Part shown: piece by piece, positions 2,755-29,505 of the stretch
Numbering within the stretch: the stretch's first letter is position 1
Layout of the letters: each line of letters begins with the position of its first letter
DNA from: Symploca sp. SIO2E9
Lineage (GTDB): Bacteria > Cyanobacteriota > Cyanobacteriia > Cyanobacteriales > Coleofasciculaceae
Length of the DNA: 32,000 bases
Assembly: GCA_010692645.1 (NCBI GenBank)
Contig: JAAHGS010000030.1
Coordinates: 15,553 to 47,552 of the forward strand
Direction: 5' to 3'
Notes under the pieces: model-generated
The model's database searches: none
What the model was told of the DNA's origin: nothing
What the model saw: only the letters and a program-made list of their open reading frames with translations
Translations under genes and position numbers: made by a program

Positions 2755-2872
2755 GGGTGAACGAAATTTTGCGTGGGATTTGAATTCTCCGCGTCTGGGC
2801 GTCTGGGCGTCTGGGCGTCTGGGCGTCTGGGCGTCTGCTTACTCCTTGCCCCACGCCTTTTTTCACTCACCC
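2755..2872 (+). mobile_element. Family-A MITE copy 1 (118 bp) with a perfect 9-bp target-site duplication
   Basis: The termini are GGGTGAACGAAA... and ...TTTCACTCACCC (inverted repeats). The flanks are identical: tttagaggg at 2746-2754 and 2873-2881. The core carries gcgtctgg x5 plus a partial unit (2791-2837). Confidence 0.85.
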
Positions 2873-9163: not shown

Positions 9164-12100
9164 TTATGGATAAGCGAAGTACAAATTATCTAGATGACTG
9201 CCATCGTCTGAGGATTTTGCCATCATTTTCTCGGCAATTGCATTCCGTAAGGGAGCCACTTGATCTGTGGTTAGCCAGGTGAATAACTCCGTCACTGCCT
9301 CTGGTGAACTATCGATTTTGACTGCTTCTTGAACCAGACGAAATGCAGCAGCAAGATTGCCAGCTTTTAGAGGAATTTGCGCTTGTGTTAGGCACAAATT
9401 AAAGTAATGGCGACGGGCTTTTGCCGTAATTTGTGTACGATGCTCAGCAGGAAGATAACTCTCTGAGATTTCAATTCCTTTGCGGTAGTATTCCCCCTGT
9501 ACCCCGGCTAGAAAAACTTCACTGGACATATTTTGGGAGTGCTGACGGTAACGGGCTAAAATTCCTGGCTCGAACCACCAATCATAAAAAGCAGCAATGC
9601 GTTTATAGAGTTCCCAGTCTGGTGTATATAGATTCCCTGGATCATAAACTCCCAATCGTTCATGAGCTACTCGACGAATTACAGTTGCACAGGGATTTAA
9701 GGGGTTTGAAACACCAATTCGCTGTAGCCATTCCTGATTGATGCCCTGTTGCATTCGAGCATGCTTTTGGGTGAAAGTTACCTGCCTGTTGTCATTAATA
9801 TTTTCATAACCTGTAAAAGCTGCTCCTACAGAATCTGGACATCCCTCTAGACTCTGTTGTAATCGAGAATAAAAACCTGGGAGGACATATTCATCCTCAG
9901 GGAGCAGGTGAATCCACTTACCACGACTGAGGGCAATTCCCAGATTAAAATTACGCCTAGCTCCAATATTTTCTGGATTTAGATAATAGCGGACTATTCC
10001 ACCACCAATGGCATTAACTAAATTATATAGAGGTGGATTACTGGCATTATCCATAACCAGAATTTCCATCTCTTCTTTACCTTGCCACTGAGCCAGCACG
10101 CTGGCAAGACATTCCAGAAGATAGTATTTCCGATTGTACAAGGGAATAATTACTGTCCAAAAAGGTCGTTTCTCCTCACTCTCTGCAACAGGAGGAATTA
10201 CTGGAAACTGATAGTTACCAACAGTGACTTCCTCTAGTTGTAGCTGCGGAGGTTTGTGTTCTTCTGTAGGAGTAGTAGAACCCTGGTATGCTTCGACGGC
10301 TTCAGCATAGCGAGGATTGATTAGCTTTAATCCCTGCCTATAAGCGGCAGCAGCTTCTTCTAATTTGTGCTGTATTTGGTAAATCTGTCCCAAGCCCAAA
10401 TAAAATTCCCCGTAGTTGGGATTGAGTTCCAAGGCTTGGTGATAGCAAGTGATGGCTTCTTCTAAATTTCCTTGTGTTTGTAGGGCTACCCCCAAGTTAT
10501 AGTGAGCTTCCCATAAGTCTCGCTGTAGGGTAATTGCCTCCCGATAGTATGCCACAGCATTGTTCATATCCCCAGCTTGTTTCCGGGCAAAGCCTAATTT
10601 GTTATTTAATTGTCCATAGTGTGCTTGTTTATCTGTGGAGAGTTTTCCTTGGGCGTGAAGGGCATTGCCCCAATTCACGTCGGCTTCAACGCAGTTAGGC
10701 TCAAGTTCCAGGGCTTTTTGATAGCAAGCGATCGCTTCTTCAAACTTACCTTGCTGTTGTAGAGTGTAACCGAGGTTGTTATAAATTGGTGCTGATTTTG
10801 GTTGCAGGGCAATAGCTTGCTGATAAGCCGCTTCTGCTTCTGGTAATTGAGCTTGAGCTTGATGCAAATTGCCTAAACTAAACCAACTCTTGAAAGATTC
10901 TGGCTGAACCTTAAGGGCTTTATTCAGTAACTTCTCAGCTTCTTGGGGTTGATTATTCTGCTGCGCTAGTACACCTAAACCATGTAAAGCTTCCGGGTGA
11001 TTAGGCTCTTGTGCGAGAACTTTCTGGTAATCCTGCGCAGCTTTGGCTAAATGATTGGCTCTATGGTTTTGAACAGCAAGCTTGAGAGTTTGAGAAACTT
11101 GAGAAACTTTTGCCATATCAAATTCCCTTTTTTCTTGATGCCGAAAGCTTTGATTTAATCTGTTCCTAACCGATACATCTTGTTGAGCAACTGTATTCAA
11201 GATAAAATCCTCTAAGGCTGTAATCGGTTCTTGGTCTCCGTATAATTTATGTTTATTCTGGGCTACTAGACTGGATATGTGTTGACGATATTGAGGATCT
11301 TTCCCTAAACGGACAGCAATCTTCACATATTCATCCTTACTAGAAGCAATTGTCTCCTCAATACCCATCATTTTGAGAATGGCAACCGCATGTCTTGCCC
11401 GCATCAACTCTCCTGGATAGGTAACAATTGGCAGGTTATGGGCAGTAGATTCCATAATCGTGTTGTTTCCAGACCAACCAATATTATCGAGGAAAACATC
11501 AGCAATAGCAGTTACTCCAGCAAATTTTCTACCCTTTAGGCGAGGCACAAAGATGCAATAGTCTTGATAATTAAGTCCAAATTCCTCAAAAGCACGACTT
11601 AAACGCTGTTGAAATACTTCAGTTACTTTGTCACTGGCATCCATAAGATGCTTAATAAAAACAAATTTACAGTTTATTAATTCCTTAGCAATCCTTGGAA
11701 AAATATCATCATGTTGAGGTAAATACTTAAACAATGATTGGCAGCACCAGAACATAACTTCATGCTCAGCAATGCCGATTTCCTGTTTACTAATTGCTTG
11801 GGTTTGGATATTTAAAAAGGTGTAATAAATTGCTAAATTTGGTAATCTGACTAACTTCTCAGTGTAATGTTCTTGAGCATTATCTGGTTCCATTAAATCA
11901 CTACTTAAGTGATAATCAATGGTTGGTAGACCACTGGTTTCTGGATGTCCTCCAAATACTACTTGCACAGGAGCTAATCTTAAACATCCCAGCTTAATTG
12001 TGATCGGATCCATCCCAAATTCAGGAAAAATTAGGATGTGTAGATTATCTCGCCGAATAACCTCACACCATTTTTCTATACTTAACGGACCTTGAATAAA

Positions 12101-13363
12101 TTTGCTAACAGCTTGAGTTGCTCTTGCTGTGGCATCATCCTGTTTGGAACCTGTATAATACCCAAATACTTCAAACAGATTTCTATTCAGGTTTTCTAAC
12201 CAACCTTTAATTGGTATTTTCCAAACGGAATGGTTGTTAAAAAAACCAGAAATAAAGCCCACACGAATTTTTTCGTTCGCCGCTAAATCCGGAATTGAAA
12301 TTGGCTGGCTCCATTGAGGATAGCGGCTCGACATTAGCCGACAAATCATCTCCCCATAAGTTTGCTGCAAATCTCGGTCATTTAGACCTTGATATGCTAG
12401 ATAAAATGGCTGAAGAGAGCCAACGGCATCAGCTGCATTTGCCAGTTCTTTTTGATTCTCAAGTTTATAACTATCAGCTAAAGCTTGTAGATGCTGCTGG
12501 TAATTATTCCGCATTAATAAGATTTCGTCAGCACTTGAATAGATAGTAGGAAGTTGACTCATACAAATGCCAAATTTGGCTTCATTGAAGTTAGGCTTAA
12601 GCTTTAAGGCTTGCTGGTAAGATTGTATGGCTTCCTCTAACTTTCCCTGTCTCTTGAGCGCATTTCCTAAATTGTAATAAACCTCAACACAGTCAGGGTT
12701 TAACCTTAATGATTGACGGTAAGCTTGTACTGCTTCCTCTATTTTTTTTTGTTCCTTGAATGCCTTGCCTAAATTATTATAAACTTCAGCAAAGTCAGGA
12801 TTGAGTCTTAAGGCTTGCTGGTAAGACTGTATGGCTTCCTCTAACTTTCCCTGTTCGTGAAGAAGATTTCCTAAATTGTTATAAGCATGAGCATAGTTAG
12901 GGTTGAGCCTTATTGCTTGTTGGTAAGCTTGTACAGCTTCCTCTAACTTTCCCTGTGCTTTGAGTACGTTTGCTAAATTGTTATGAGCCTGAACATAGCT
13001 AGGATTGACCCTTATTGCTTGCTGGTAGGACTTAACAGCTTGCTCTAATTTTATCTGTTGTTGGAATGCATTTCCCAAGTTGTAATGAGCTTCAACAAAA
13101 TCAGATTTGATCTTGATAGCTTGCTGGTAAGATTGTACTGCTTCCTCTAACTTTCCCTGCTTCTGGAGGAGATTGCCTAAGTCAGTAATTATCAGGTGAT
13201 ATATGTTACTTAGGAAATCTTGTTCTACTGCACTAGTAGACTGAGTTTCTAATACCTGTCTGTATATAGATTCAGCCTCATGCAATTCGCCTAATTTATG
13301 TTTCTGGGATGCAGTCTCAATTAGAGATTTAATATTTGGTTCTAAAAAGTTTTTGGTATTCAT
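9164..13363 (-). CDS. Multidomain glycosyltransferase: TPR array - GT41 (SPY/O-GlcNAc-transferase-like) domain - second TPR array - GT2 domain
   Basis: The track start at 13417 is a TTG that overlaps a hairpin. The ATG at 13363 gives MNTKNFLEP. The N-terminal TPRs carry repeated ...AHxNLGNxxxxQGKLEEAxxxYQQAxxLxP units. The central region has the GT41-like motifs IRVGFISGFFNNHSVWK, VVFGGHPETSGLPTIDYHLSSD and HYTEKLVRLPN. A second TPR block starts at the internal MAKVSQVSQTLKLAV (ATG at 11116). The C-terminal GT2 domain has WTVIIPLYNRKYYLLECLASVLAQ...ILVMDNAS...LLPEDEY. Confidence 0.85.
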   Translation of the reverse strand: MNTKNFLEPNIKSLIETASQKHKLGELHEAESIYRQVLETQSTSAVEQDFLSNIYHLIITDLGNLLQKQGKLEEAVQSYQQAIKIKSDFVEAHYNLGNAFQQQIKLEQAVKSYQQAIRVNPSYVQAHNNLANVLKAQGKLEEAVQAYQQAIRLNPNYAHAYNNLGNLLHEQGKLEEAIQSYQQALRLNPDFAEVYNNLGKAFKEQKKIEEAVQAYRQSLRLNPDCVEVYYNLGNALKRQGKLEEAIQSYQQALKLKPNFNEAKFGICMSQLPTIYSSADEILLMRNNYQQHLQALADSYKLENQKELANAADAVGSLQPFYLAYQGLNDRDLQQTYGEMICRLMSSRYPQWSQPISIPDLAANEKIRVGFISGFFNNHSVWKIPIKGWLENLNRNLFEVFGYYTGSKQDDATARATQAVSKFIQGPLSIEKWCEVIRRDNLHILIFPEFGMDPITIKLGCLRLAPVQVVFGGHPETSGLPTIDYHLSSDLMEPDNAQEHYTEKLVRLPNLAIYYTFLNIQTQAISKQEIGIAEHEVMFWCCQSLFKYLPQHDDIFPRIAKELINCKFVFIKHLMDASDKVTEVFQQRLSRAFEEFGLNYQDYCIFVPRLKGRKFAGVTAIADVFLDNIGWSGNNTIMESTAHNLPIVTYPGELMRARHAVAILKMMGIEETIASSKDEYVKIAVRLGKDPQYRQHISSLVAQNKHKLYGDQEPITALEDFILNTVAQQDVSVRNRLNQSFRHQEKREFDMAKVSQVSQTLKLAVQNHRANHLAKAAQDYQKVLAQEPNHPEALHGLGVLAQQNNQPQEAEKLLNKALKVQPESFKSWFSLGNLHQAQAQLPEAEAAYQQAIALQPKSAPIYNNLGYTLQQQGKFEEAIACYQKALELEPNCVEADVNWGNALHAQGKLSTDKQAHYGQLNNKLGFARKQAGDMNNAVAYYREAITLQRDLWEAHYNLGVALQTQGNLEEAITCYHQALELNPNYGEFYLGLGQIYQIQHKLEEAAAAYRQGLKLINPRYAEAVEAYQGSTTPTEEHKPPQLQLEEVTVGNYQFPVIPPVAESEEKRPFWTVIIPLYNRKYYLLECLASVLAQWQGKEEMEILVMDNASNPPLYNLVNAIGGGIVRYYLNPENIGARRNFNLGIALSRGKWIHLLPEDEYVLPGFYSRLQQSLEGCPDSVGAAFTGYENINDNRQVTFTQKHARMQQGINQEWLQRIGVSNPLNPCATVIRRVAHERLGVYDPGNLYTPDWELYKRIAAFYDWWFEPGILARYRQHSQNMSSEVFLAGVQGEYYRKGIEISESYLPAEHRTQITAKARRHYFNLCLTQAQIPLKAGNLAAAFRLVQEAVKIDSSPEAVTELFTWLTTDQVAPLRNAIAEKMMAKSSDDGSHLDNLYFAYP

Positions 13364-13415
13364 TTTTAGAAAACGCACTTTTTTTGCGGCGGTATAAATT
13401 TTGAAGAGTAAAGGC

Positions 13416-13434
13416 AAAGGAGAGTCTCTCCTTT
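13416..13434 (-). terminator. Short inverted repeat aaaggagag-t-ctctccttt downstream of the HetP-family gene; weak terminator candidate
   Basis: Nine-bp arms separated by 1 nt, located between the HetP-family stop (13501) and the next gene's ATG (13363). No clear U-tract follows. Confidence 0.3.
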
Positions 13435-19566: not shown

Positions 19567-20643
19567 TCAAGCTGGTTGACTCAAAGCACCAGTGAGATAG
19601 TTAGCAGAAGCTGCCACTAAGGCGATCGCATTTTCGTAAATCATCCTGGTTGGACCAAGAATTGCCACACTCCCCACTGGTTTCTCATCTTGCTGATAAT
19701 TAGCACTAACTAGAGTACAAATACGCATCGGTTCCAAGGGGTTTTCTGAACCAATCCTCACCGATACCCTAGGCTGAAACTCCTGTAACTCTGGCAACTC
19801 AAAGATTACTGACGATAGTTGTTCCTGTTCCTCCTCAAGTAAATGCATGAGCATCTGAACTTGCTGTAACTGGGAAAATTCTGGCTGGCGCAACACCTCT
19901 GAAACACCGCGAATCATGATTGGTGTAGATGCTGGTGCTTTCAGGCGTTGGCTTAATTCTGACAGCAAAGATGATAAAAAATCCGCATACTGAGCAAATT
20001 CTCGGTCGAGTTCACTCCAATCCTGGGTTACGATTTCACACAGTGCTCGCCCCCGCAGCTTACTATTCAAGAAATTTGATAAGATTTGTAACTCACGCTC
20101 GACAATCGACTCATCTACTGCTCCATCATCTGCTGAGTTTGGCAGTTTCATTAACACGGATTTGGTTTCATAGGAATTGGTTAATACCACCAGCATCACT
20201 CGCTTGGGCTCGATTTGTACCAACTGTAAATGCCGCAACCGCGTAGTTTGAGTCCTAGGAATGGTAATCAGAGCAATGTAGCCGCTAATTGTTGCCAGCA
20301 TTTGCGCTGCATCCCTCAGAATTGCTTCCAAGCCCCATTCCTCCCAGTTCAAATTATCTGCCAGTAAATTCTCAATCTGGCGTTCAAAGGTTTCGGAAGG
20401 GTTGATCAGCTGATCAACGTAAATGCGGTAGCCAGAGTCAGAGGGAACCCTTCCAGCAGAGGTGTGGGGTTGATATAATAGTCCTCCTTTTTCTAAGGCT
20501 CCCATACAGGCGCGAATTGTGGCAGGACTGACACTAAGGTCATACTCAGAAGCTAAGGCTTTTGAACCCACTGGTTCTGCCGTCGCAATGTAATGACGGA
20601 TAGTTGCCCAGAGGATGCGTTGTTGCCGATTCGTCAGACTCAT
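19567..20643 (-). CDS. hrcA: Heat-inducible transcription repressor HrcA
   Basis: A 358-aa ORF. The N-terminus reads [77 protein letters not shown], which is the canonical HrcA winged-helix region. Confidence 0.92.
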
Positions 20644-20831: not shown

Positions 20832-21191
20832 TTAGTAACGAGGGATGCGATCATCAACAAGCAGCGAGTAGGCATCAATACCACCAGAAATATTTTTGAC
20901 GTTAGTGAAGCCCTGGCTAGCTAGCCACTGGCACATCTGAGCTGAGCGGACACCGTGATGGCACATAACTAGGGTTTCGTTGTCTCGATCAAAGCGAGTT
21001 GTGATTTGGTCAGACCATTGAGCAAATTCACTTAAGGGTAACACCTCAAAGCCCTCAAGATGGGCAATCTCTACCTCCTGAACCTCTCGTACGTCGATTA
21101 ATTGGAGAGTATCAGAAGAAAGAGCTATCCTTTGAGCCAATTCCTCAACAGAGATTTCGGGGATGGATTGATCGGGAGATTGATTTACCAT
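20832..21191 (-). CDS. Single-domain rhodanese-like sulfurtransferase
   Basis: The track start at 21194 is a TTG, and the ATG at 21191 gives MVNQSPDQ. The active-site loop is VMCHHGVRSAQMCQWL, followed by NISGGIDAYS. Confidence 0.85.
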   Translation of the reverse strand: MVNQSPDQSIPEISVEELAQRIALSSDTLQLIDVREVQEVEIAHLEGFEVLPLSEFAQWSDQITTRFDRDNETLVMCHHGVRSAQMCQWLASQGFTNVKNISGGIDAYSLLVDDRIPRY

Positions 21192-21384
21192 CAAAATTTT
21201 TCCAAAAATCTATAAGACTTATTAAAGTACTGCTCATGAAACGACGAACAAGGAATCCCTAATGTAATCTTAACGGTAGGGAAACCCACAACAAATCGAA
21301 GAAGATGGCATGGGAGGATGTCACTTAGTGGTTGGCAAGAATAGGTGAGTGCTCCACACACTGACTCTACGAGTACAGTGTGGG

Positions 21385-21640
21385 CTTCTTAAGACTTTTT
21401 AAGACAGCCTCAGTCAATAGCCTCAGTCTTCCGTCGTGCTAGGGAGACTACGTTGCCCAGAATGTATAGGCACTCAGGGGTGTAGGGCTGACAACCCGCG
21501 TTCTAGCCCCGGACTCTGCGGCTTTTGATTAAACATCCCTGCTGTGTGAGAGGGGAAGTGTTGAGAGCTAGAAACCTGGGACAACATTGGCGAAGAACAC
21601 CACCTTTACGGGTTCAACTTTATGTAGTTGAAAATCATGA
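21385..21640 (+). ncRNA. Candidate IscB omega RNA (HEARO-type structured RNA); the 5' boundary is approximate
   Basis: The region is ORF-free and lies directly upstream of, and co-oriented with, iscB. By eye, its GC content is higher than that of other intergenic DNA in this window. It contains direct repeats ttaagac x2 (21389, 21399) and agcctcagtc x2 (21406, 21419). The stem gggct/agccc spans 21485-21509. A 7-bp hairpin, ttcaact/agttgaa (21613-21632), ends 4 nt before the ATG. The call rests on position plus visible structure; it is not an alignment to a covariance model. Confidence 0.5.
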
Positions 21641-22965
21641 AAGTTTGTGTAGTTAACATTGGTGAGCGTCCGTTGATGCCCACCACACCGAGAAAAGCCA
21701 AAATCTTGCTCAGGGAGGGAGCAGCAAAGATATTTAGGCGCGACCCATTTACGATCCAATTGCTCAGTGATTGCCACGGCTACATTCAGCCAGCCACCTT
21801 GGGAATTGATGCAGGTTACTTGAACATTGGCTACAGTGCACTCAATCAAACAGCAGAGCTGATTGGCGGCGAAGTCAAAATGCTCGAAGGGATGTCACAA
21901 CGCATAAGCGAAAAGCTTAAGTACCGTCGCACTCGTCGTAATCGATTGCGTTATAGAGCGCCAAGATTCAATAACCGTCGGCGCAATAATGGTTGGTTAA
22001 CTCCGAGTATCGAGCACAAGTTAGATACCCACCATCGTCTCATCGACCGAATTAAGTCCGTGTTGCCGATTGAGACAGTAGTGATAGAAGTAGCCAACTT
22101 TGACATCCAAAAAATCAAGAATCCAGAAATCTCTGGAAATGGGTATCAACAAGGGGAACAAAATGGTTTCGACAATTTGAGGGAGTACCTGTTACATCGA
22201 GATGGGCATAAATGTCAGCATCCAGAGTGCAAAAATAAATCCAAACAACCCAATCTTCAAGTACATCATTTGGGCTTTTGGAAAAATCCTCCAGACCGCA
22301 CTGACCGCCCTGGTAATCTCATCACTCTCTGCAACAAATGTCATACCCCAGCGCAGCACAAAAAGAAAGGAAAATTGTTTGGATGGGAGCCAAAAATCAA
22401 GCCATTCAAGCCTGAGACTTTCATGTCTACAGTGCGGTGGAGGCTTGCCAAAGATACTGGTTACAAGGCAACTTTTGGGTACATCACGAAAGCGAAACGC
22501 CGCATTTTAAAGTTGGATAAATCACATCATAATGATGCTTTTGTCATTGCTGGAGGCGAGTATCAAACTAGGTGTGAGGCATTAAATCTGGTTCAGATAC
22601 GAGGCAACAAGCGTTCAATGGAACAATTCTATGATGCCAAGTATTTGGACATCAGAGATAAAGTGCCAAAATCAGGAACGGAATTGTTTTCTGGTCGTAG
22701 AACGCGCAATAACAATCTTAATAGCGAAAACCTACGAGTGTACCGAGGACACAAATTATCCAAAGGACAGCGTAGGGTTAAAAAGCTTCGCTATCGCTAT
22801 CAACCTCATGATGAGGTTGAATTTGAAGGAGCCGTTTTTGAGGTAGTAGGAATGCAAAACAAAGGCACCGGAGTTAAGTTGAAAGATTACCCAGGCATTA
22901 AGAATAAAGTGGTCAAAATTTCTGCTGTTAAGTCAGTTAAGAAGCGAGGAGGTATTTGTGCTTAA
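21637..22965 (+). CDS. iscB: IscB: IS200/IS605-associated OMEGA RNA-guided nuclease (RuvC split by HNH, PLMP domain, Arg-rich bridge helix)
   Basis: The track start at 21628 is a TTG, and the ATG at 21637 gives MKVCVVNIGERPLMPTTPRKAKILL, which contains the PLMP motif. The remaining motifs, in order, are RuvC-I TLGIDAGYLNIGYSA, RRXRR/bridge KLKYRRTRRNRLRYRAPRFNNRRRNNGW, RuvC-II ETVVIEVANFD, HNH CQHPEC...LQVHHL...GNLITLCNKCH, and RuvC-III KSHHNDAFVIAG. A basic C-terminal domain follows. Confidence 0.85.
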   Translation: MKVCVVNIGERPLMPTTPRKAKILLREGAAKIFRRDPFTIQLLSDCHGYIQPATLGIDAGYLNIGYSALNQTAELIGGEVKMLEGMSQRISEKLKYRRTRRNRLRYRAPRFNNRRRNNGWLTPSIEHKLDTHHRLIDRIKSVLPIETVVIEVANFDIQKIKNPEISGNGYQQGEQNGFDNLREYLLHRDGHKCQHPECKNKSKQPNLQVHHLGFWKNPPDRTDRPGNLITLCNKCHTPAQHKKKGKLFGWEPKIKPFKPETFMSTVRWRLAKDTGYKATFGYITKAKRRILKLDKSHHNDAFVIAGGEYQTRCEALNLVQIRGNKRSMEQFYDAKYLDIRDKVPKSGTELFSGRRTRNNNLNSENLRVYRGHKLSKGQRRVKKLRYRYQPHDEVEFEGAVFEVVGMQNKGTGVKLKDYPGIKNKVVKISAVKSVKKRGGICA

Positions 22966-23040
22966 AAGCACTCAGACGCTCCGATTCATGAGGGGCTGTC
23001 GCACCGAATTCATTCCCAGCGTTTAAACGCCCCATCCCAA

Positions 23041-23143
23041 GGGTGAACGAAATTTTGGTTGGAATTTCAATTCTCCGCGTCTGGAGCGTCTCCGCGTCTC
23101 CGCGTCTGCTTACTCGTTCCCCCACTCTTTTTTTCGCTCACCC
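23041..23143 (+). mobile_element. Family-A MITE copy 2 (103 bp) with a perfect 9-bp target-site duplication
   Basis: The sequence runs gggtgaacgaaattttgg...ccgcgtct repeats...ttttcgctcaccc. The flanks are identical: ccatcccaa at 23032-23040 and 23144-23152. Confidence 0.85.
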
Positions 23144-23262
23144 CCATCCCAAGCTGACCCCTCCGGGGTACAGGCGTGGGGCTTCTTGCCCGAGCAGCTA
23201 AAATAGGCTGAAAATAGGCATAATAACCTAATCTAACGCCTTCGGACGCTTTCAAAATCACC

Positions 23263-25032
23263 ATGAAGCTACGCTCGTTCTTTTCTGTCTTAGCAGTTGG
23301 TGCCATTGGGCTGCTGTTGACTGCTGTAGGAGGCTTTTTCTGGTTAACCTCCCAAAGCCCCCTGAATTTACTGCACGGAGGTGTAAAGACCAATCCAACT
23401 GCTGCAATTTTTGTGCCGAAACAGGCACCGATAATGGTGTCAATGCAAGTTAATCCAGAGCGTTTGGAAGCATTTAGGCAACTAGCAGCACGTCCAGTTT
23501 ATCGGCGACAAGCCCGTGCTGAACTAAAGCAATTTGAACAGAGTCTGCTGGCAATTATTGACGCTGATTTAGACTACCGTCGTGATATTCAACCCTGGTT
23601 GGGAGATGAAATCACTCTAGCTGTTACCTCTCTAGACTTTGACCGCAATCGAGAGAATGCCACACAGCCTGGATACTTACTGGCACTCACCGCTAAAGAC
23701 CCCAAACGGGCCCGAGAGTTCTTACAACTTTTTTACTCCAAGCAGGCGCTCTCTGAAACCTCGGATTTAGTCTTGGAAAAGTACAAAGGCGTTAACCTGT
23801 TTTACAAGCGTCCACTGGTCCAAATGGAGCCATCTGGTGATGATTTTAATCAAAGTCAGATGTTTACAACTCTTACTAGCGCAATCGTGGGGGACCGCTT
23901 TGTGCTATTTGCCAATCATCCCAAAGTTTTACGAAGTGCCATTAACACAGTCCAAGCTGCAAACCTAAGCTTGGAAAATGAGCCTGTCTACCAGCAAACT
24001 CTGCAAAGTCTAAGTGAACCTAGGATTGGTTTAAGTTTTGTAAATCTCCCAGCTTTGACAGCCTGGATTGCTAATCAACCAGTACCTGTGCAGGATACCT
24101 TGCAGGGTTCTGAGACTCTAGCATTTGCCCTGTCACTGGATCTTCAAGGTTTAGTAGCACAAACAGCTTTGGTAGGGGCAGAACCTGGTACTCAAAGCCA
24201 ACAGCCCACTCTCTGTGAACCAGTAGCCGCCTTACAGTATATTCCAGCCAAGAGTGCCTTTGCGATCGCAGGTACTGACTTAAATCAACTCTGGAACCGT
24301 CTTCAGACAGGTGTTGCCAGCGATGAAACCCTCAAACCGTTGCTGGAGAAATCCCTCGCCAGTTTACGCTCACGCTGGGGCATTCAACTGCCAGAGGATG
24401 TATTTAGTTGGGTACAAGCAGAATATGCACTCTCAATGCTGCCTCGCCCAGATAGAGAAAATCCCGATTGGATTTTTGTCGCAGGAAAATTGGATAACTC
24501 AACAGCCCAGGTATCAATTGAGCATCTAGACACTGTTGCCAAGCAACAGGGAATGAGTGTAGGTTTTCTGTCACTGGGAGAACACAAACTCACAGCCTGG
24601 ACAAAGCTGACTACATCTGCTCAAGTTGCTGCTAGTCGCCAAGCAGAAGCAGAGTTGACTCAACCCTTACTAAAGTTAGAAGCACAAGTTCAGGGAGTCC
24701 ATACCACTGTAGGAGATTACGAAATTTTCGCAAGTTCGATTGCTGCAATGGATCAGGCGCTTAAGGGAAGGTTGAATTCTCTGCTCAAAAGTGAGCAATT
24801 TCAAAGTGCGATTGCCTCTTTACCGGAACAAAATGATGGCTATTTTTATCTTGACTGGAAGCGGAGTGAAGCTTTGCTCAAGCGTCAGCTGCCAATTGTG
24901 AGAGTAGCTCAGCTAGTAGGAAAACCTCTATTTGATCATCTGCAATCTCTTAGTCTTAGCAGCTACGGTATCGATAAAGGCATCCGACGAAGCAAGCTGT
25001 TTCTCCGGCTAGATACTACTGAGCAAGTGTGA
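23263..25032 (+). CDS. Conserved cyanobacterial membrane-anchored protein, DUF3352-like
   Basis: A 589-aa ORF with an ATG start. It has an N-terminal signal-anchor (FFSVLAVGAIGLLLTAVGGFFWL) followed by a long soluble region (DIQPWLGDEITLAVTS...). The family name is assigned from memory of similar cyanobacterial proteins and has not been verified. Confidence 0.7.
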   Translation: MKLRSFFSVLAVGAIGLLLTAVGGFFWLTSQSPLNLLHGGVKTNPTAAIFVPKQAPIMVSMQVNPERLEAFRQLAARPVYRRQARAELKQFEQSLLAIIDADLDYRRDIQPWLGDEITLAVTSLDFDRNRENATQPGYLLALTAKDPKRAREFLQLFYSKQALSETSDLVLEKYKGVNLFYKRPLVQMEPSGDDFNQSQMFTTLTSAIVGDRFVLFANHPKVLRSAINTVQAANLSLENEPVYQQTLQSLSEPRIGLSFVNLPALTAWIANQPVPVQDTLQGSETLAFALSLDLQGLVAQTALVGAEPGTQSQQPTLCEPVAALQYIPAKSAFAIAGTDLNQLWNRLQTGVASDETLKPLLEKSLASLRSRWGIQLPEDVFSWVQAEYALSMLPRPDRENPDWIFVAGKLDNSTAQVSIEHLDTVAKQQGMSVGFLSLGEHKLTAWTKLTTSAQVAASRQAEAELTQPLLKLEAQVQGVHTTVGDYEIFASSIAAMDQALKGRLNSLLKSEQFQSAIASLPEQNDGYFYLDWKRSEALLKRQLPIVRVAQLVGKPLFDHLQSLSLSSYGIDKGIRRSKLFLRLDTTEQV

Positions 25033-25035
25033 AAG

Positions 25036-25137
25036 GGGTGAGCGAAAAAAAGAGTGGGGAAATAAGTAAGCAGACGCGGAGACGCGGAGACGCGGAGACG
25101 CGGAGAATTCAAGTCCCACGCAAAATTTCGTTCACCC
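25036..25137 (-). mobile_element. Family-A MITE copy 3 (102 bp, inverted orientation) with a perfect 9-bp target-site duplication that contains the upstream gene's stop codon
   Basis: The sequence runs gggtgagcgaaaaaaagag...gacgcgga x4...aaatttcgttcaccc. The flanks are identical: gtgtgaaag at 25027-25035 and 25138-25146. The TGA at 25030-25032 is the stop of the 589-aa ORF. Confidence 0.85.
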
Positions 25138-25212: not shown

Positions 25213-25887
25213 ATGGAACCCACAGATAGACCCAGAGTGAAAATATGCTGTATTAGCAGCGTTGAGGAAGCTAAGCTGGCGATTCGTTACGGTGCTTCAG
25301 CATTGGGCTTAGTGTCTGAGATGCCGAATTGTTCGGGAGTAGTCTCCGAAGCTTTGATTGCCCAAGTAGCAGGGATGGTGCCGCCTTCAGTATCTTCATT
25401 TTTGCTTACTAATAAGCACAATGCCTTAGAGATTAGGGCACAGCAACGGCGCTTGGGTGTCAACACCATTCAGATTTGTGATCAACTCCAATTTGGTACT
25501 TACGAAGATTTGCGTCAGACATTGCCAGGAATTGACCTAGTGCAAGTGATTCAGGTTAGAGGCGTAGAATCAATAGAAGAGGCTGTTGCTGTAGCTCCTC
25601 ACGTCTCAGGACTTTTACTTGATGCTGGTAGTCGAGATTTAAGTGTCACAGAAGTTGTTGCTACAGAACCAATTTGCGATTGGGAGATTAGCAGACGCAT
25701 ACGCGAGTTAGTGGAGGTACCGGTGTTTCTGGCAGGAGGACTTAATCCTGATAACGTGACGACAGCAATTGAACAAGTAAAACCCTTCGCTGTCAACGTT
25801 GGCGAGGGTATTCGCACCCATGGCAAATTGGATGAGGATAAGCTCTCTAAATTCGTTAGTCAAGTTTGGATGGCTGCCGGTAATTAG
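25213..25887 (+). CDS. trpF: Phosphoribosylanthranilate isomerase (TrpF-family)
   Basis: A 224-aa ORF. The motifs are RVKICCISSVEEAKLAIRYGASALGLV, LLDAGS and VFLAGGLNPDNVTTAI, which fit the PRAI TIM-barrel pattern. The usual KICG reads KICC here. Confidence 0.75.
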   Translation: MEPTDRPRVKICCISSVEEAKLAIRYGASALGLVSEMPNCSGVVSEALIAQVAGMVPPSVSSFLLTNKHNALEIRAQQRRLGVNTIQICDQLQFGTYEDLRQTLPGIDLVQVIQVRGVESIEEAVAVAPHVSGLLLDAGSRDLSVTEVVATEPICDWEISRRIRELVEVPVFLAGGLNPDNVTTAIEQVKPFAVNVGEGIRTHGKLDEDKLSKFVSQVWMAAGN

Positions 25888-26219: not shown

Positions 26220-27483
26220 ATGAGGCTGATAGTTTACTCACATGATGCCTTTGGTCTTGGTAACATTAGCAGAATGCTTGCTATCTGTAAGTACCTGTTA
26301 GATACCTCCTCAGAAAATTCTATTTTGCTAATATCAGGTTCTCCTGTTTTGCATAGCTTTCGGATGCCTCAGGGCTTAGATTATATTAAATTGCCTTGCT
26401 TAGGACGAGACAAGTCTGGCAAAATATCTGCTAAATTTCTGGGAAAAAAGCCTCAACAAGTAGCCAAGTTGCGTTCTGAAATTATTAAAGCAGCTATTAT
26501 TAATTTTGAACCGAATCTAATTCTTGTTGATAAAAAACCCTATGGTTTACAGGGAGAGTTAAAATCGACTCTCACTTACTTAAAACAACATTCACCCAAA
26601 ACTAAATTAGTGCTACTTCTGAGAGATATTCTTGACGCACCATCTATAACAATTAAGGAATGGAATAAAAATGGTTATTATCAAGCATTGCAACACTATT
26701 ATCACCAAATATTAATAGTCGGAATACCTGAAGTTTTTGACATTATAAAAGAGTATAATTTTCCACAATCAATTGCAAATAAAACGAAATTTTGTGGTTA
26801 TATCCGTAGGGAATATGGATGTAAACCACCTGAAGTTATTCGTCAAGAATTAAATCTAAAAGCGGATGAAAAATTAGTATTAGTCACACCTGGAGGTGGA
26901 GGAGATGGCTATCACTTAGTCGCAACATATCTACAGGGATTAGAACAACTTCCCTCTCAATCTAATATCAGAAGCTTAATTATTTATGGTCCCGAAATGC
27001 CAGAAGAATTGAGCCAGAATCTTTTGCAAATAGCTCATAAATTTTCTCAGGTACAAATATCAGAATTTACTGATTTTAAAACTTCAGCAAGCTGCTTTAG
27101 ATAAGCATAATCTTACCTTACAAAGATACACACCAAATCTGATTAATTACATGAAAAAAGTTGAACTCTCAATCAGTTTAACTGGATACAACACCACGAT
27201 GAATATTATCAAAACTGGTGTTAATGCTCTGGTAGTTCCTATCGGTCACTATCGCCAAGATAAAGAGCAGTTAATTAGGACGGAGAAACTTGAAAATCTT
27301 GGAATTGTTAAAGTTCTTGAGCCTGAAAAATTAGAACCTACTTATCTAGCTCAAAAAATAATTGGCTGCTTACACAACAAGTTAGAGGTAAAACCTAATC
27401 ATAATTTTGACCTTGAAGGGTCTAAAAATACTGCTGTGTTCTTGAAAGAATTATTACAAAATAATATTGCTATTGCTGCTTAG
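26220..27483 (+). pseudogene. COG4671 / GT28-C-like glycosyltransferase split into two ORFs (26220-27104 and 27151-27483)
   Basis: ORF1 begins MRLIVYSHDAFGLGNISRMLAI, contains LVLVTPGGGGDGY, and ends ...QVQISEFTDFKTSASCFR*. ORF2, in the +1 frame, carries the expected continuation: its frame reads ...HNLTLQRYTPNLINYMKKVELSISLTGYNTTMNIIKTGVNALVVPIG... and is open from 27034. Together the two parts equal one normal-length enzyme. Confidence 0.65.
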
Positions 27484-27578: not shown

Positions 27579-29505
27579 ATGCGTATAGGCAGACGGTTTT
27601 TACCCTATATACGCAAACGCAAATTATTAATTATAGGTTCTTTCTTCGCACTTTTAGTTGACACAGGATTCCGATTACTAGAACCTTGACCTCTAAAATT
27701 TGTGTTTGACCAGGTTTTAGTTGCACAAACTGATAGCTCTTTCAACGTTATAGTAAATGGCGGAATCGATCCGATACTGCTGCTAACCCTATTAGCTTTA
27801 TCTATTGTCTTCATCTCTGTGTTGGGTAGCTTTGCTGCTTATGTGAGCACCTTTGGTATGGCCTTAGCATCAGTGCAGATATTAACCGATATTCGTAGCG
27901 ATCTATTCAGTCACCTTCAACGCTTATCTCTAAACTTTTATTTCAAGCATAAAAGTGGTGATTTAATTGCTTGCGTCACCGCTGATATAGACCGCATCAA
28001 ACTGGCTATTGTTAAAGTTATTCTTCCACTTATAACTAACATGATAACTCTATTGGGAATGTTAGTAGTTATGAGTTGGATAAATTGGCAATTATCCCTG
28101 ATTGCGTTGATAGTTTTTCCCATTTCTATTACTGCTATCACTCGCTTGGTTGGTCAGATTCGCCTTGCTAGTCGAGAACATCGTAAGCTTCAGGGAATTT
28201 TAGCTGCAACTACTAGCGAAACCATTGGCGCAATCAAGGTTATACAGGCGCTCTCCCTACACAACCAACTTGAAGACATTTTTGCCGAACAAAACAATCA
28301 AACCTTAAATCACGGGACAAAATCCCTCAAACTCTCGACTGTTCTACAACGAACAGTACAGGTTTTAATAGCGATTGCTATTGCCCTTGTTTTATGGCGT
28401 GGTTCGCATCTAGTTATCCAAAAATCTCTGACTCCTGGCGATTTGCTGGTATTCATCACCTATCTCAAAAACGCTTTTGAACCCCTGCGTAAGCTTGCCA
28501 ATCAATTGGGAGATATTGCTAAAGCCACTGCCTCTGGGGAACGGATTATAGATATCCTTGACTACGAACCTCATGTTCGCAACCTACCCAATGCTAAACC
28601 TGCTCATCCTTTCTTTGGTGCGCTGCGCTTTGAGAATGTGAGCTTTGGGTACGAATCGAGCCATGAAATTTTACGGAATGTCTCCTTTGAGGTGCAACCA
28701 GGTCAACAAATTGCTATTGTCGGTGCTTCCGGTGGTGGAAAATCAACCTTAATCAGTTTGATCCTTCGTCTCTACGATCCTAATTCTGGTCGTATTCTCA
28801 TTGACGGGCAGGATTTGCGGGAATACACATTACAGTCTCTACGAAAGCAAATTAGTGTTGTCCTGCAGGAGAGTATCTTATTTGCCGGTACCATCGGCGA
28901 TAATATTGCCTACGGAAAAATAGGCGCTTCTGATGCAGAGATTGAACGAGCAGGCAAAATCGCCAATGCCCACGACTTTATCATTAATCTGCCTGACGGT
29001 TACAACACCATTTTAGGGGAAAGAGGCATTAAAGACGCGGGGACACGGTGACACGGGGACGCGGGGACAAATTGGATGGGGATTTGACCCCAACCAATTT
29101 TATGCACCGCAAGTGACGGTGGGGTATTTAACCCAAATTAATTTCGATAACCTCTCAGGAGGTCAACGACAAAGAATTGCAATTGCCCGCGCTGCTATCC
29201 GCCAAGCACCAATTGTCATCCTTGATGAACCCACGACGGGTTTAGATAATGCTAGCGAACAAGCACTCAATCAAGCACTCAGTCGTCTGACTCAACAACG
29301 GACAACCTTCCTTATCTCTCACAATCTTAGAGCAGTGGAACAGGCCGATTTAATTCTCTACCTAGAAGGTGGAGAAATTATAGAACGAGGAACACACCAG
29401 CAACTGATGGTTAAAGCTAAGCATTATGCCTCACTCTACCAACTTCAAAATGCCTATCATCCTCCCATTTTACAAGCTATGAACCTGAGCAATTCTGAAT
29501 TTTAA
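27579..29505 (+). pseudogene. ABC exporter (fused TMD-NBD, MsbA-like) inactivated by an in-frame TGA and a MITE insertion
   Basis: The ATG at 27579 gives MRIGRRFLPYIRKRKLLIIGSFFALLVDTGFRLLEP, then a TGA (27687-27689), then PLKFVFDQVL in the same frame. The reading frame breaks after GERG-I (29028-29030) and resumes at N-LSGGQRQRIAIARA (29149 onward). The track ORFs 27702.. and 29113.. begin at GTG codons. Walker A is GASGGGKST and Walker B is IVILDEPTTGLD. Confidence 0.8.
29033..29150 (+). mobile_element. Family-B MITE, long copy (four 8-mer units), inserted inside the ABC exporter gene
   Basis: The copy is flanked by TAA (29030-29032 and 29148-29150). It contains gacgcggg gacacggt gacacggg gacgcggg (29034-29065), followed by arms that match 2341-2430 in reverse complement. 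Removing 29033-29150 gives ggc att aac ctc tca gga ggt caa, which reads G-I-N-L-S-G-G-Q in frame. Confidence 0.85.

Follow-up and report, generated by a model that had tools for sequence, protein, structure and literature searches.

The iscB gene in a 32,000-nucleotide (nt) stretch of the marine filamentous cyanobacterium Symploca sp. SIO2E9 (contig JAAHGS010000030.1, positions 15,553 to 47,552 of the forward strand; hereafter the window) is apparently the cargo of a non-autonomous, bounded transposon of the IS200/IS605 superfamily (ISC type), which an earlier note on this DNA had overlooked. We put at roughly 85% the probability that the segment from 21345 to about 23197 is an ISC-type element that carries nothing but an intact iscB and its ωRNA gene, with the known donor-site-restoring role. 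The parts of the element and its immediate borders are the following (window coordinates).

21345 to about 23197, plus strand: IscB element of about 1.85 kb, bounded by comparison with 20 or more copies
21329 to 21344, plus strand: predicted ωRNA guide, TGGTTGGCAAGAATAG, 16 nt of host flank directly 5' of the scaffold
21345 to 21636, plus strand: ωRNA scaffold of the HEARO type, 292 nt, from the right-end boundary to the iscB start codon
21354 to 21384, plus strand: right-end (ωRNA-side) subterminal hairpin, CCACACACTG...CAGTGTGGG followed by CTTCT, which is the first ωRNA stem
21637 to 22965, plus strand: iscB coding sequence, 442 amino acids, with its ATG at 21637 and its stop codon ending at 22965
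22990 to 23035, plus strand: segment of 46 nt that follows the stop codon and precedes the left-end hairpin, present in the window and in a truncated relative (L020) and absent from the nearest copy (L001)
23041 to 23143, plus strand: nested repeat of 103 bp resembling a miniature inverted-repeat transposable element (MITE), inside the IscB element and unrelated to it
23148 to 23181, plus strand: left-end (downstream) subterminal hairpin, CCCAAGCTG...CAGGCGTGGG followed by GCTTCT
23197 to 23201, plus strand: predicted transposon-adjacent motif (TAM), (G)CTAA on the iscB strand and TTAG(C) on the transposase top strand
Hairpin sequence of the element ends: GTGGGGCTTCT

As judged from its sequence, the open reading frame (ORF) truly encodes an IscB, which appears to be intact and retains every nuclease residue. 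The earlier note had described a 442-residue ORF at 21637-22965 with the architecture of IscB rather than that of a plain HNH homing endonuclease and with all the expected catalytic residues, and each of these points was borne out. Every motif that it quoted is present in the translation in the order given, namely ERPLMPTTPRKAKILL, GIDAG, RRTRRNRLRYRAPRFNNRRR, IEVANFD, CQHPEC...VHHL...GNLITLCNKCH and HHNDA. An upstream in-frame TTG at 21628 could serve as an alternative start, which is unlikely because homologues begin with MKV... at the ATG. The domains of the protein are as follows.

Residues 12 to 15: PLMP motif
Residue D58: RuvC-I
RRTRRNRLRYRAPRFNNRRR: Arg-rich bridge helix
Residue E151: RuvC-II
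Residue H211, with zinc ligands C193, C198, C232 and C235: HNH domain
Residues H297 and D300: RuvC-III
C-terminal part: beta-rich domain

Three profile hidden Markov models matched the protein. The NCBIfam equivalog NF040563 (guided_IscB, "RNA-guided endonuclease IscB") scored 306.7 bits, its curated cut-off being 175 (E 1.6e-91), and residues 3-305 of the protein aligned to positions 1-313 of the 314 in the model. Pfam RRXRR (PF14239) covered residues 3-173 (182.7 bits against a cut-off of 25, E 7.3e-54) and Pfam HNH residues 193-237 (E 1.4e-5), and both the PLMP motif and the bridge helix lie inside the RRXRR/IscB model match. In sequence searches of the PDB, every chain that was hit belonged to an IscB, an IsrB or a compact Cas9 (TbaIscB, OgeuIscB, HfmIscB and DtIsrB).

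The comparison of structures agreed with this assignment. An AlphaFold2 model built from an alignment of 60 homologues reached a mean predicted local distance difference test score (pLDDT) of 73.8, with low confidence in the bridge helix and the linkers. When it was compared with the PDB by Foldseek, each of the nine best matches was a ribonucleoprotein complex of IscB or IsrB, with E-values between 1.7e-24 and 4e-18, and compact Cas9s came next. The top structures were the IscB-ωRNA complexes 8csz, 9k30, 9nvu, 9liq and 7xht (E 1e-20 to 1e-24); the comparison with cryo-electron microscopy structures of IscB-ωRNA that the earlier note had proposed as a check came out in its favour. The template modelling scores were only about 0.5, because the domains of the model are flexibly placed and its mean pLDDT is 73.8. 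The C-terminal region, which is the TAM reader in known IscBs, is beta-rich over its last 55 residues or so; this part was modelled confidently and aligns poorly in sequence to OgeuIscB.

In a profile alignment to OgeuIscB (7xht), residues D58, E151, H211, H297 and D300 fall on D61, E193, H247, H340 and D343 without any substitution (OgeuIscB residue numbers were counted along the printed profile alignment), and we take the latter five to be the catalytic residues of the OgeuIscB structure papers. Among the 60 aligned homologues, which are 61-94% identical, the five residues are invariant or nearly so and the four zinc cysteines are invariant. Analogous mutations (D58A/H209A/H210A) inactivate GstIscB (Meers et al., bioRxiv 10.1101/2023.03.14.532601). 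The Symploca protein may be an active programmable nuclease. NCBI records still list many close homologues (e.g. P0001, P0002, P0013 and P0016) as 'paclitaxel/taxanoid biosynthesis susceptibility protein TS1'; this name is a legacy misannotation, proteins of the identical family being called 'RNA-guided endonuclease IscB'.

The upstream RNA, which the earlier note had assumed to exist, is supported both by a match to the HEARO family and by covariation. An E-value search with Rfam RF02033 (HEARO) gave a full-model match at 21360-21603 on the plus strand (77.5 bits, E 2.5e-15), and a search at gathering thresholds reported nothing anywhere in the 32-kb window. For comparative analysis, the regions upstream of iscB were aligned from 22 related loci. 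Conservation starts abruptly at 21345 and runs to the start codon, and the bases to the left of 21345 differ in every locus. RNAalifold predicted 53 pairs in nine helices, in which 96% of the cells of the alignment hold standard pairs and 33 of the 53 pairs show compensatory changes. Controls in which the 3' partners were slid by 1-3 columns gave 41-46% paired cells and 9-14 compensatory pairs, and none of 500 column shuffles reached the observed values of pairing and covariation. The RNA of the window retains 51 of the 53 consensus pairs. Folding of the upstream region alone was uninformative (z = -0.9), and the structural support thus comes only from the comparative analysis.

Both components have been under purifying selection. 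The nearest copy of the element, L001 from Symploca sp. SIO3C6, is 94% identical at the amino acid level and 93% at the DNA level. Between the two iscB ORFs, the ratio of nonsynonymous to synonymous substitution rates (dN/dS) is 0.11 (dN 0.031, dS 0.28), with no frameshift or stop across 1326 nt, and the ωRNA region, identical at 281 of 291 positions (96.6%), is more conserved than the synonymous sites; it is on these two results that the conclusion is based.

The ends of the element have the features expected of this superfamily. At the ωRNA side, the right-end hairpin corresponds to consensus helix 1, with compensatory changes at its loop-proximal pairs, and is a putative TnpA-binding hairpin. 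At the other side, the pattern ATTCATCCCACRCTGA-loop-TCAGYGTGGGGCTTCT-N(12-15)-GCTAA is common to about 17 loci, all of which diverge afterwards. The hairpin foot GTGGG(G)CTTCT occurs at both ends, and the 46-nt segment at 22990-23035 partly repeats the left-end motif CGATTCATCCCA. Terminal inverted repeats are absent, and so is a target-site duplication, neither flank (TGGTTGGCAAGAATAG on one side, (G)CTAAAATAGG on the other) having a second copy. Subterminal hairpins in the same arrangement are known from IS200/IS605 transposons (Kapitonov et al. 2016, PMC4810608).

Meers et al. (bioRxiv 10.1101/2023.03.14.532601) assign the ωRNA side of IscB elements to the right end of the transposon and place the TAM directly next to the left end, which lies downstream of iscB. 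Because of this geometry, (G)CTAA at 23197-23201 is the predicted TAM on the iscB strand. The element would end at either 23196 or 23197, the G belonging to the element or to the motif; it can be assigned either way because the empty site of a relative, Symploca sp. SIO1C4, reads ACTAA.

The comparison of loci in related genomes indicates that the element is mobile. L001 shares positions 21345-23201 with the window, and its flanks are unrelated. The flanks of two other loci of SIO3C6, L002 (84% identical) and the 5'-truncated L020, are also unrelated to those of the window. Because the closest relatives sit at other sites, the element is probably a recent insertion and not a conserved host gene. 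L020 (JAAHHJ010000044, 10001-10889) retains only IscB residues 189-442, which are 92% identical, and has kept the left end and GCTAA; it shows apparent decay of copies in SIO3C6.

An empty counterpart of the site was found in SIO1C4 (L029), where 160 bp separate the rhodanese and DUF3352 genes and no IscB element is present. Its context (ABC/C39, HrcA, rhodanese, DUF3352 and PRA isomerase) is that of the window, and the DUF3352 orthologue is 90% identical. The homology of the empty site to the right flank of the element resumes exactly at CTAAAATAGG. The genes on either side of the element, which the earlier note had rightly taken for housekeeping genes, are the following.

19567 to 20643, minus strand: HrcA
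20832 to 21194, minus strand: rhodanese-domain protein
23263 to 25032, plus strand: DUF3352 protein
25213 to 25887, plus strand: PRA (phosphoribosylanthranilate) isomerase

The element has inserted where a short motif, AAAATAGGC, occurs twice in tandem (window 23200-23225; L029 4941-4967), and removal of the element re-forms a third partial copy of AAAATAGGC (GAATAG/GCTAAAATAGGCTGAAAATAGGC). By eye, a conserved CATAAT/GATAAT was noticed to the right of the insertion point and about 18 bp away from it, some 37 nt ahead of the ATG of DUF3352. This may be a candidate −10 box of DUF3352, in which case the element would lie near the −35 region, and not downstream of the promoter, and would possibly displace that region.

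The most likely role of the IscB-ωRNA pair is, by analogy, the known one, in which the empty donor site is cut so that recombination restores the element. The steps proposed here follow the experimental behaviour of GstIscB and OgeuIscB. A transcript started in the left flank would give rise to an ωRNA whose 5' 16 nt, TGGTTGGCAAGAATAG, are host-derived, and IscB would bind this RNA. A TnpA encoded elsewhere would excise the element, leaving a rejoined donor site in which TGGTTGGCAAGAATAG is followed by (G)CTAA. The IscB-ωRNA complex would recognise the guide match together with the 3' TAM, the HNH and RuvC domains cutting one strand each, and homologous recombination with an element-bearing sister chromosome would then reinstall the element. 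The occupied site would be spared, because the guide match there is followed by GTGAG and not by the TAM. Cleavage of the donor joint, with the TAM at the left end and the ωRNA at the right end, has been described by Meers et al. (bioRxiv 10.1101/2023.03.14.532601). The guide length of 16 nt is an assumption made by analogy with OgeuIscB, and the predicted guide has one match only in the window.

Several observations weigh against an element that still plays this role. They bear above all on the rival explanation that the locus is a stranded relic, its ORF and scaffold intact, which is immobile or non-functional at this place and heading towards a pseudogene, whether for lack of a cognate TnpA, for lack of a guide-bearing transcript, or because its ends are damaged. 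We regard this outcome as unlikely, though it deserves to be weighed seriously. No Y1 transposase (TnpA) was found among the ORFs of at least 100 amino acids in the window, as a relic would predict; however, Meers et al. (bioRxiv 10.1101/2023.03.14.532601) give the share of iscB genes that have a tnpA nearby as no more than about 1.5%, and a window without TnpA is therefore normal.

Transcription of the guide is a weak point of the proposed role. The upstream rhodanese gene is divergent from iscB and points away from it, whereas Meers et al. (bioRxiv 10.1101/2023.03.14.532601) report a statistical tendency of IscB elements to share the orientation of the gene that precedes them, a bias presumably connected with transcription of the guide. 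A scan of 21100-23350 for promoters and terminators found sites no more often than in shuffled sequences, and on the plus strand it found no sigma-70-like promoter left of the guide, that is, left of 21329. Both the orientation of the neighbour and the lack of a promoter-like site fit a relic that makes no guide-bearing transcript.

The ends and the RNA also carry changes. At the right end, a substitution at 21349 gives the pentamer GTGAG, unique among 21 loci, the 20 others having GTGAC. At the left end, the hairpin arm CCCAAGCTG (CCCAAG) differs from CCCACGCTG (CCCACG) of the relatives by an A for C at 23152, which weakens one pair of the hairpin. The MITE at 23041-23143, absent from L001 and L020 in the alignment, is nested 5 bp upstream of this hairpin; it is bordered by terminal inverted repeats GGGTGAACGAAA / TTTCGCTCACCC and by a 9-bp duplication, CCATCCCAA, at 23032-23040 and 23144-23152. 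The few point changes at the ends and the 103-bp MITE suggest some loss of mobility, and the extra 46-nt segment can be counted on the same side. On the other hand, the MITE duplicated its target, and the left-end hairpin is still contiguous with the end.

Within the ωRNA, one conserved pair of helix 5 (21476/21511) is broken (A.G). The HEARO score lies 5.5 bits below the RF02033 gathering score of 83, mainly because the clade's own 5' hairpin at 21354-21384 replaces the first helix of the model; the E-value and the full-length coverage still indicate homology. Finally, attempts to align the left junction to the SIO1C4 empty site gave no reliable result, and for this reason the left boundary is placed by the edge of multi-locus conservation only. 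The truncated L020 shows in addition that relatives of the element can decay. Against a relic stand the retention of nearly all consensus pairs in an RNA more conserved than synonymous sites, and the low dN/dS together with a reading frame uninterrupted at a dS of 0.28, which argue that the protein was selected until recently. An element retaining its donor-site-restoring role thus remains the reading that we prefer, its mobility perhaps somewhat reduced.

Purifying selection on the ORF and on the RNA would also be expected if the host had co-opted the nuclease-RNA pair at a fixed locus, be it for regulation or for defence, and if the guide had ceased to play a part in maintaining the transposon. 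The position of the element, which lies between divergent genes in a promoter region and some 60 bp ahead of the start codon of DUF3352, could be read in the same way. Such a domestication is very improbable, since SIO1C4 has the same locus without the element, the closest relatives at other sites point to a recent insertion, and both transposon ends are kept. Moreover, the catalytic residues are intact, unlike those of the known domesticated, nuclease-dead TnpB relatives, and the guide is plain adjoining host flank with no other match in the window.

That the protein is not RNA-guided, and is instead an ordinary HNH homing endonuclease or else a CRISPR-associated relative of Cas9 whose array was lost, is suggested by the Pfam HNH match and by compact Cas9s (YnpsCas9, type II-D) among the weaker structural and sequence matches, but can practically be set aside in view of the split RuvC, the PLMP motif and the bridge helix, the full-length IscB equivalog match, the linked ωRNA, and a length of 442 amino acids without a recognition (REC) lobe. 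Three specific candidates were considered and rejected. A plain HNH homing endonuclease is ruled out by the split RuvC, the PLMP motif, the bridge helix and the ωRNA, and IsrB by the HNH domain at residues 193-237. A Cas9 (type II effector) was rejected on the absence of an array, on the neighbours (HrcA, rhodanese, DUF3352 and PRA isomerase), and on a size too small to hold a REC lobe. Neither a CRISPR-like repeat array nor an Rfam CRISPR family was detected in the window.

With the element read as a transposon that restores its donor site, we also considered whether the guide could have influenced where it settled. The guide-side flanks of the window (21327-21344) and of L001 (9692-9709), anchored at the boundary, match at 13 of 18 positions, the highest value among 210 pairs of loci, and the reconstructed empty sites of both read roughly GGTT(T)GG..AATAG/GCTAA. 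The guide of a parent ωRNA might have biased the establishment of a daughter copy, if it directed cleavage to a similar ectopic site and the element was then copied into the cut. We hold this to be a long shot. Gapped local alignments of 50-60 nt of the left flank with L001, L002 and L029, made as a test for a carried-along flank or a fossil guide, were not significant, and the 13/18 match may reflect chance or an AT-rich target context. If it were true, IscB would affect the choice of target as well as the retention of the donor site.

Elsewhere in the window, further MITE copies were observed, each with its own 9-bp duplication. These repeats are about 103-118 bp long, with 12-nt terminal inverted repeats GGGTGA(A/G)CGAAA and internal 8-nt tandem repeats GCGTCTGG / TCTCCGCG. 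The copies other than the nested one are intergenic, for example between the DUF3352 and PRA isomerase genes. These copies, and a large ORF on the minus strand, are located as follows.

2755 to 2872, plus strand: MITE copy
25036 to 25137, minus strand: MITE copy
9164 to 13417, minus strand: tetratricopeptide repeat (TPR)/glycosyltransferase ORF, 1417 amino acids

A 102-nt (34-codon) tandem repeat at 12588-13164, considered as a CRISPR array, was rejected as such: it consists of TPR coding repeats in the 1417-amino-acid ORF. Two other genes appear to be interrupted. An ABC transporter gene is split into ORFs of 449 (27702-29051) and 130 amino acids (29113-29505), which divides the ABC_tran domain; its orthologue in SIO1C4 (L029) is a single gene that encodes more than 621 amino acids. 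At the break, 29034-29069, an 8-mer, GACACGGG, is repeated 4.5 times in tandem, which points to an expansion of the repeat, another small insertion or a mistake in the assembly. A family-28 glycosyltransferase gene is apparently split as well, into ORFs of 294 (26220-27104) and 110 amino acids (27151-27483). At the corresponding place, L029 has two intact glycosyltransferase paralogues of about 400 amino acids, and the window seems to hold one disrupted copy.

IscB, the HEARO/ωRNA, ISC transposons (including cyanobacterial ones) and donor-joint cleavage have already been published, and NCBI already names close homologues IscB; no new principle is added here. What is specific to the Symploca locus is the predicted (G)CTAA TAM, the 292-nt scaffold with a clade-specific 5' hairpin, and the nested MITE. 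The locus provides a clean, fully bounded IscB-ωRNA element, with a predicted guide and TAM, both ends and a matching empty site, in a host whose IscB clade has no characterised member. This clade of 442-amino-acid IscBs may read a new and simple TAM, predicted as (G)CTAA, which, if true, would be useful for compact genome editors, and the locus is a candidate source if compact editors with new TAMs are wanted.

Altae-Tran et al. reportedly described IscB OMEGA systems of the IS200/IS605 superfamily in 2021. As in ISC/IscB OMEGA systems, a single iscB is preceded here by a HEARO/ωRNA in an element without tnpA. The subterminal hairpins at both ends, the lack of a target-site duplication and the presence of multiple diverged copies per genome are likewise shared with ISC transposons, as are a conserved motif of a few nucleotides just beyond the ωRNA-distal end and a relative in which the orthologous site is empty. 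Kapitonov et al. (2016, PMC4810608) reported ISC transposons from cyanobacteria and proved them by empty sites; the IscB of a known cyanobacterial member, ISC1 of Coleofasciculus chthonoplastes, is 69% identical to that of Symploca. The flanking motif, (G)CTAA, differs from ATGAA (the reverse complement of TTCAT) of GstIscB and from N/ATGA, GT/GG and TT/GG of the ISC families tabulated by Kapitonov et al. (PMC4810608). Unlike the described ISC systems, the Symploca copy has an upstream gene in the opposite orientation and a MITE nested in its 3' untranslated part.

OgeuIscB (PDB 7xht, 7utn and 8csz) has the same domain order and catalytic residues and is the best structural match. The two proteins are about 19-22% identical in a structure-based alignment and differ in length (442 amino acids against 496 for OgeuIscB). 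Because the sequence alignment fades after about residue 388 of the Symploca protein, the C-terminal TAM-reading domain is taken to be divergent from that of OgeuIscB. The Symploca scaffold is also the longer one, with 292 nt to the ATG; that of OgeuIscB is about 206 nt. The TAM of OgeuIscB is given as NWRRNA (PMC12660989). As for RF02033, which Meers et al. (bioRxiv 10.1101/2023.03.14.532601) consider incomplete and without downstream elements, the Symploca RNA resembles HEARO in matching the full model at the expected position and in the expected orientation upstream of an HNH/IscB ORF. It departs from the model in that the first helix is not formed, and it has instead a clade-specific 5' hairpin and, past the end of the model, two extra 3' hairpins.

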